A DNA stretch of 64,000 nucleotides from Octopus vulgaris (lineage: Eukaryota): positions 32,984,001 through 33,048,000 of the forward strand of contig OX597816.1 of assembly GCA_951406725.2 (NCBI GenBank), given 5' to 3'. The notes under the pieces were generated by a model. The model saw nothing but the letters and a program-made list of their open reading frames with translations, ran no database searches and was not told where the DNA came from. Position numbers and translations under genes: made by a program. Below, piece after piece: positions 6,560 to 6,890 of the stretch. How positions within the stretch are numbered: position 1 is the first letter of the stretch; the number at the start of each line of letters is the position of its first letter.

Positions 6560-6561
<2 letters not shown>

Positions 6562-6882
6562 TAAATATTAGGGAATAAATCCAAATTTACAGGGAAAAAA
6601 ATCAGATTTAGGATTAAATCCAATTTTATAGTAAAATATTATAAAATATTATTAGAGACAAAACCACTATTTTGCAAAACAAACAAGGAAAGACTTAATC
6701 AATACATAAAATTTTAATAAATAGTCAAAAAACCGCCACTACAATTGTTTCTTGTCTTGATCGACAATCTTCAGGTGGACTTCCAATCTAAAATATTTGA
6801 CTATTTATTAAAATTTTATGTATTGATTAAGTCTTTCCTTGTTTGTTTTGCAAAATAGTGGTTTTGTCTCTAATAATATTTT

Positions 6883-6890
<8 letters not shown>
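6560..6890 (-). mobile_element. Fold-back Penelope-like non-coding element (89-bp inverted arms 6641-6729 / 6796-6884) inside (TA)n
   Basis: The arms are reverse complements; the spacer contains an HHR. Confidence 0.75.
6736..6778 (-). ncRNA. Type I hammerhead ribozyme, intact core
   Basis: Minus: ccac-CTGAAGA-ttgtc-gatcaa-gacaa-GAAAC-aatt-GTA-gtgg; stem I ccac/gtgg, stem II ttgtc/gacaa, palindromic ACAATTGT stem III. Confidence 0.85.

Follow-up and report, generated by a model that had tools for sequence, protein, structure and literature searches.

The 64,000-nt stretch of Octopus vulgaris DNA analysed here (the window) carries at 6556-6922 a hairpin locus that is probably a short, promoter-less insertion of a young Penelope-like element (PLE) of the Hydra clade, with a hairpin shape stemming from integration primed on both target strands and not from a selected RNA structure, and with a ribozyme that is probably weak. 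Each arm is a sense copy truncated at its 5' end; the two are joined head to head, and their outer ends are the two fixed termini of the family, set in (TA)n (Table 1). As the first-pass annotation had reported, the arms are exact reverse complements (6641-6729 and 6796-6884, 89 of 89 bp) around a spacer of 66 bp. Among the 11 perfect inverted matches listed (at least 20 bp, simple repeats excluded), this one was the longest and the only one with an arm distance below 1.5 kb, and its minus-strand fold had a z-score of -22 against 100 shuffles. The window also contains two imperfect palindromes, one of about 190 bp at 28886-29074 and one of about 100 bp at 59999-60100, which are possibly small inverted-repeat elements. 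Inverted repeats about 2 kb apart were present at 37071-39500 (about 460 bp, 85%) and 47384-49690 (about 116 bp, 91%), and a dispersed short repeat occurred in four copies that were 75-84% alike (323-433, 7300-7410, 11951-12059, 28275-28379).

Table 1. Features of the hairpin locus (positions in the window; the hammerhead and the helix I extension are predictions from sequence).
Feature	Position	Strand	Basis or remark
Long arm: pseudo-LTR end in sense copy, truncated at 5', up to the long terminus of the family	6556-6795	-	Sequence
Final 8 nt of the 1,816-nt parent intron, including the AG acceptor	6788-6795	-	Splice-site mapping on L032
Minimal type I hammerhead	6736-6778	-	Sequence; predicted cut between 6740 and 6739
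Predicted helix I extension, AUUG (6787-6784) with CGGU (6735-6732)	6732-6787	-	U.G/C-G variation
Short arm, inverted: the other sense copy; begins 10-11 nt beyond the predicted cut and runs up to the short terminus of the family	6796-6884	+	
"Tail" of about 83 nt, on the long arm only	6556-6640	-	
(TA)n target flank, right side	6885-6922	.	Sequence; left flank about 6400-6555

The long arm was 99.6% identical to other genomic copies over 242 nt with 1 gap. With the 241-nt segment 6800-6560 as query, matches of 99-100% were obtained at 40 scored of 944 candidate places. The outer end was common to all 30 fetched loci, mostly with TA repeats next to it; in a few loci the sequence continued into a next unit. 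The short terminus was common to most sampled arms. TA flanks were present in most loci of the family as well as at the hairpin locus, where no target duplication was readable within the (TA)n flanks. In tandem copies the unit measured about 6 kb, and an open reading frame (ORF) of 838 aa began about 55 nt beyond the outer end. This single ORF combines a reverse transcriptase (RT) with a C-terminal GIY-YIG endonuclease (YRDD; VVY...VYIG). It also contains RIKWK, SDKT, CTCRDKSNC (CxCx5C), CYLC (CxxC) and CRH (CxH) and lacks CCHH, which is the motif set of the Hydra clade (RWK, DKT, CxCx5C linker, CxxC, CxH, no CCHH). The ORF had 40 homologs at E<=1e-20, Argonauta proteins among them, and a Pfam scan of it gave no relevant match. 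An asparagine-rich insert between RT and endonuclease (P0001 residues ~500-600) was missing in most homologs. Pseudo-LTR tandems, an inverted 5'-truncated copy and a tail at one end, all typical of PLEs, were present too. Judged by its motifs, the parent falls in the Hydra clade. The earlier view of a young, truncated PLE-type insertion with an inverted end was thus borne out by the near-identical copies, the 838-aa RT/GIY-YIG parent and the two family termini. No Hydra-type ORF was found within the 64-kb window. Open frames of 239-454 aa at 50600-58030, with a direct repeat of 795 bp at 52278-54282, may be pieces of a non-LTR retrotransposon.

The first-pass annotation had also raised the question whether other copies share the fold-back, and they do. 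A 37-mer of the arm had 2,863 exact matches in the genome. In the 109 arms around the first 100 of these matches, 76 lay head-to-head within 10 kb, a partner beyond the fetched stretch being counted as unpaired, and tail-to-tail neighbours numbered 2. The anchor for mapping lay 12 nt upstream of the 37-mer pattern, and arms ending inside it were dropped (e.g., L107, L119). Of 38 pairs, 35 had a long family end on one arm and a short one on the other, the short end lying about 83 nt earlier; one "short+short" pair in the sample is a cut-off locus. A genome search returned 88 sites with a layout similar to the hairpin locus. At 22 of the 30 that were fetched, the hairpin locus included, one arm ended on the 3' side of the cut and its partner ran past the ribozyme, and at 6 of these 22 loci with the ribozyme in the loop the short arm extended further 5' than the long arm. 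In 230 hairpins both arms ended in a zone just 3' of the ribozyme. Solo short arms were also present, and at three loci (L046, L091, L104) the long arm barely or not at all overlapped the short arm. The head-to-head fold-back is the usual insertion shape of the family, with a junction specific to each locus; the junction of the 6556-6884 copy occurred only once in the genome. Tandem units with a hammerhead each, as in retrozymes, were not seen at this single insertion. Two loci had other arrangements. At L065:1740-2350 a hairpin had two long ends and the flanking host DNA was also inverted and duplicated, and at L094:950-1660 a TA tract and then a third arm, long and spliced, came after a short+short hairpin.

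The parent intron is of the GT-AG type (donor after L032:5105, acceptor ending at L032:6921) and ends 9 nt before helix I. In intron-less copies, the donor exon was joined directly to the L032 acceptor. As judged from copy ends, the presumed RNA start is a TCACT that resembles an initiator and lies 23 nt upstream of the donor. Classification by splice form gave 45 intron-less and 27 unspliced arms, and 37 of the 109 were too short for it. In a lineage with a mutated first donor GT, copies had their junction at the following GT, four bases further along, and variants typical of a lineage were found in spliced as well as unspliced form. Since many palindromes are precisely spliced and obey the GT rule, they were copied from sense RNA. 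The splice form was the same in both arms of all 19 classifiable pairs (12 spliced, 7 unspliced; p ~6e-6 if independent), and a loop III variant was shared by both arms in each of 26 pairs. Such concordance suggests that the two arms derive from a single RNA or from a single source locus. The 8-9 nt of retained intron at the hairpin locus suggest that unspliced RNA was the likely template of its long arm. A separate non-autonomous subfamily or a master palindrome was considered for the sequence upstream of many hairpins and was ruled out, as this sequence is exon 1 of the parent. Penelope transcripts are mostly spliced, and selection against intron-less elements was suggested (PMC2377424); the accessible part of that paper does not report intron-less genomic copies. 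Nor were intron-less PLE palindromes found in the literature searched (freely accessible papers without their supplements).

The loop had been annotated as an intact hammerhead, and this was confirmed in sequence for the core and for helices I-III. The order on the minus strand is CCAC, CUGAAGA, UUGUC-GAUCAA-GACAA, GAAA, CAAUUG, UA and GUGG, with helix I formed by CCAC/GUGG, the core by CUGAAGA and GAAA, together with helix II and a palindromic loop III. This corresponds to a type I hammerhead (core CUGANGA, GAAA, NUH, helices I-III). The pair closing the core (10.1-11.1), the Rfam comparison and the predicted fold qualify the word intact. A G-C pair at 10.1-11.1 is highly conserved according to Cervera and de la Pena (2014; PMC4209133, available in part); the pair here is U-A (6736-6778), and among 15 family variants it was U-A in 5, A-U in 5 and unpaired in 5. 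Rfam gave no match to a hammerhead model in the whole window, nor in 6700-6820 at E up to 10. Degenerate fragments of eukaryotic small-subunit rRNA, partly duplicated, were recognized by Rfam at 18921-19604 (+). The hammerhead pairs were retained in 96.9% of cells across the 15 variants, and covariation in these variants, which are too close to one another, was not above that of shuffles. The minimum-energy fold of the loop was not the hammerhead, which was predicted to be about 5 kcal/mol costlier in the hairpin copy and in both parent contexts. A loop III dimer folded with hammerhead helices in silico. At about 29440-29515 (-), CUGAUGA and GAAA motifs were seen that are not connected as in a usual hammerhead.

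The 43-nt ribozyme had 492 exact copies in the genome, and nothing in the sequence marks the hairpin copy as more active-looking than the other 491. Its proposed rank as the best candidate in the window for a still active ribozyme is unsupported in view of these copies, the lost promoter, the fold predicted to be disfavoured and the long arm that was copied through the uncut site. According to the available text of PMC4209133, minimal PLE hammerheads showed no cleavage as monomers and low cleavage as dimers, and the PLE hammerhead from anole needed the protein of the element for cleavage (PMC11167929, in the part available). The octopus ribozyme is probably weak, dimer- or protein-assisted and inherited from the parent, without special activity at the hairpin locus.

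The 5' ends of the arms accumulated beside the ribozyme. They were 6.5-fold denser at +5 to +27 from the predicted cut than at -41 to +4 (24 versus 6 of 109 arms; the bins were set after the data were seen). Genome-wide, retention of the next upstream 17-mer was 0.75 before the ribozyme, 0.48 across this hot zone and 0.71 inside the ribozyme, where 0.69-0.78 was expected from mismatches alone. For finer mapping, 80 ends were taken from 40 loci among the first 50 of the 230 hairpins, chosen by spacer length. At +7/+8 we found 27 of the 80 ends, and T-rich chance matches may pull ends to +7, not beyond; only 4 of 80 were at +6 or closer, compared to about 40% expected under an even spread up to the cut. 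The short arm of the hairpin locus ends at +10/+11, within the zone, and the long arm spans the uncut site. Position +7/+8 is the 3' foot of the predicted helix I extension, with 96.7% pairing and U.G/C-G variation there; covariation of this extension was not beyond shuffles (15 variants). An alternative predicted fold has its end at the same position. Insertions of at least 5 nt were found in 13 of 22 pairs reaching +7/+8 and in 2 of 14 pairs ending further out (p = 0.009), and the inserted sequences were mostly reiterated A/T-rich units similar to the template at +7/+8. Stalling with slippage fits these insertions. Templated insertions are produced by polymerase-theta repair, which fits them too. 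AT-richness is unlikely as the sole cause of the hot zone, since only 5 of about 27 unspliced arms were mapped with an end in the upstream AT-rich part of the intron (180 bases), and these include some reference artefacts. In the literature searched, again freely accessible papers without supplements, we did not find a stop boundary next to a PLE ribozyme.

We suggest that the endonuclease of the element would nick both strands of a TA tract and that each nicked strand would prime its own cDNA, which would start from the short terminus on one strand and from the long terminus on the other. Both cDNAs would be templated by the same sense RNA, or by sibling RNAs from one locus, and their ends would then be joined. 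At the hairpin locus, the long-arm cDNA would have passed the uncut ribozyme and stopped 8-9 nt into the intron, and the short-arm cDNA would have stopped in the hot zone on the 3' side of the ribozyme, probably where the RNA is base-paired. The hammerhead would thus sit in the loop because one cDNA passed it and the other did not reach it. The in vitro data in the available part of PMC11167929 are in line with this: both target strands were cleaved and extended, two starts flanked the tail, and uncut RNA was the main template. Identical arms with concordant splice form and variants would, however, also be predicted if one cDNA had folded back, primed itself and copied back to the short terminus, with a later central deletion or spacer inversion giving the asymmetry. 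Junction insertions are typical of repair, and self-priming was proposed before (PMC3846280, as far as available). Solo short arms, long arms that hardly or not at all overlap their partner and short arms that reach further 5' than the long arm argue against this course, and its antisense-template version is contradicted by the precisely spliced copies. We therefore favour independent priming at both termini and regard fold-back as unlikely.

It is similarly doubtful, in our view, that the short arm ends where the hammerhead cut its template and that the hot zone records cleavage in vivo. The density of ends, the drop of 17-mer retention across the zone relative to its two sides and the 230 hairpins with both ends in it would be expected from cleaved templates. 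The scarcity of ends at +6 or closer speaks against it and leaves run-off from a cleaved RNA end unsupported as the main cause of the zone. By contrast, automatic mapping, in which some ends are inflated, placed about 24 of 52 spliced-type ends no more than 6 nt from the presumed start of the RNA. In addition, the partner arm at the hairpin locus spans the uncut site, and RNA ends at the cut were not found in PMC11167929, as far as its accessible text goes. A transcribed hairpin with a functional self-cleaving loop, serving as a source of small RNA or as an editing substrate, could draw on the 89-bp stem that read-through RNA would form and on a ribozyme core without mutations. Such a function is very unlikely: the hammerhead fold is disfavoured by about 5 kcal/mol, the hairpin is one among many independent by-products, and the copy has no promoter. 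The presumed start site, 1.8 kb further upstream, is missing from it, so that hairpin RNA would need host read-through. The least probable account is an assembly fold-back artefact, which the first-pass annotation had named as what would refute its finding and to which arms of 100% identity and microsatellites on the flanks might point. It appears hardly credible from the sequence, as the arm halts at the short terminus of the family rather than mirroring flanking DNA, and as the same architecture recurs at many loci with differing junctions, its own being unique. The hairpin locus is a real, ordinary insertion. Returning to priming on both target strands, a more specific version is conceivable, which we put forward only tentatively: the thousands of copies would record a Penelope cycle in which a complex of two enzymes copies a single sense RNA, in spliced or unspliced form, with a separate start for each target strand. 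Helix I of the hammerhead would act as a template boundary for this telomerase-related enzyme, giving a telomerase-like stop and short reiterated repeats as an effect of the ribozyme other than cleavage.

The family touches three questions in PLE biology, namely the origin of head-to-head repeats, intron retention and the role of the hammerhead. The spliced palindromes count against an antisense template. A simple account of intron retention would be that RNA from the start site yields short, promoter-less copies and that activity persists only in read-through copies that carry the intron. From the sharp stop and the stuttering beside the ribozyme, an exact prediction follows for the in vitro system already established. 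The signal of the family (spliced palindromes, one start per arm, a stop with stutter) was not found in the literature searched, with the same scope of freely accessible papers without supplements.

Several features are shared with known systems, compared here on the basis of the accessible parts of the respective papers. Like the Hydra-clade PLEs of Craig et al. (2021; PMC8557442), the octopus family has a C-terminal GIY-YIG domain, an RWK-type motif, DKT, the CxCx5C linker, CxxC and CxH flanking E and N, no CCHH, a hammerhead, a (TA)n target, an inverted 5'-truncated copy and an optional tail. It differs in unit size (about 6 kb with a 1.8-kb intron versus <3 kb) and tail length (about 83 versus 30-40 nt), and the octopus family also has an Asn-rich ORF insert and abundant intron-less hairpin copies. 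With the minimal PLE hammerheads (PMC4209133), the octopus ribozyme shares type I, a 4-bp helix I, a short palindromic helix III and an intron end adjoining helix I, but the G10.1-C11.1 pair is absent and helix II has only 4-5 bp. Pairs of hammerheads on opposite strands, 100-700 bp apart, are already known from Schistosoma (PMC4209133).

The Poseidon element PAc studied in vitro by Frangieh et al. (2024; PMC11167929) likewise has two RT starts bounding the tail, an AT-rich target, extension of both target strands and uncut RNA as template, as in our reading of the octopus copies. The octopus starts lie upstream of the ORF and both resemble the TA target, whereas those of the anole element are non-homologous; one start per arm and stops beside the ribozyme are not described for PAc in the available text. 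The head-to-head pLTR palindromes of Adineta Penelope elements (Arkhipova et al. 2013; PMC3846280) share the inverted pLTR, the one-sided tail, palindromic junctions, a TCACT initiator-like motif and Asn-rich ORF inserts. For Adineta, self-priming on an antisense template was proposed to account for intron retention, while the octopus palindromes are often precisely spliced and indicate a sense RNA template. Animal non-LTR retrozymes (bioRxiv 10.64898/2026.07.22.740005) are likewise short, non-coding, hammerhead-bearing PLE derivatives. The octopus hairpins differ from them by the lack of tandem units and by their locus-specific junctions, and given these junctions they look like dead-end insertions rather than a replicating unit.
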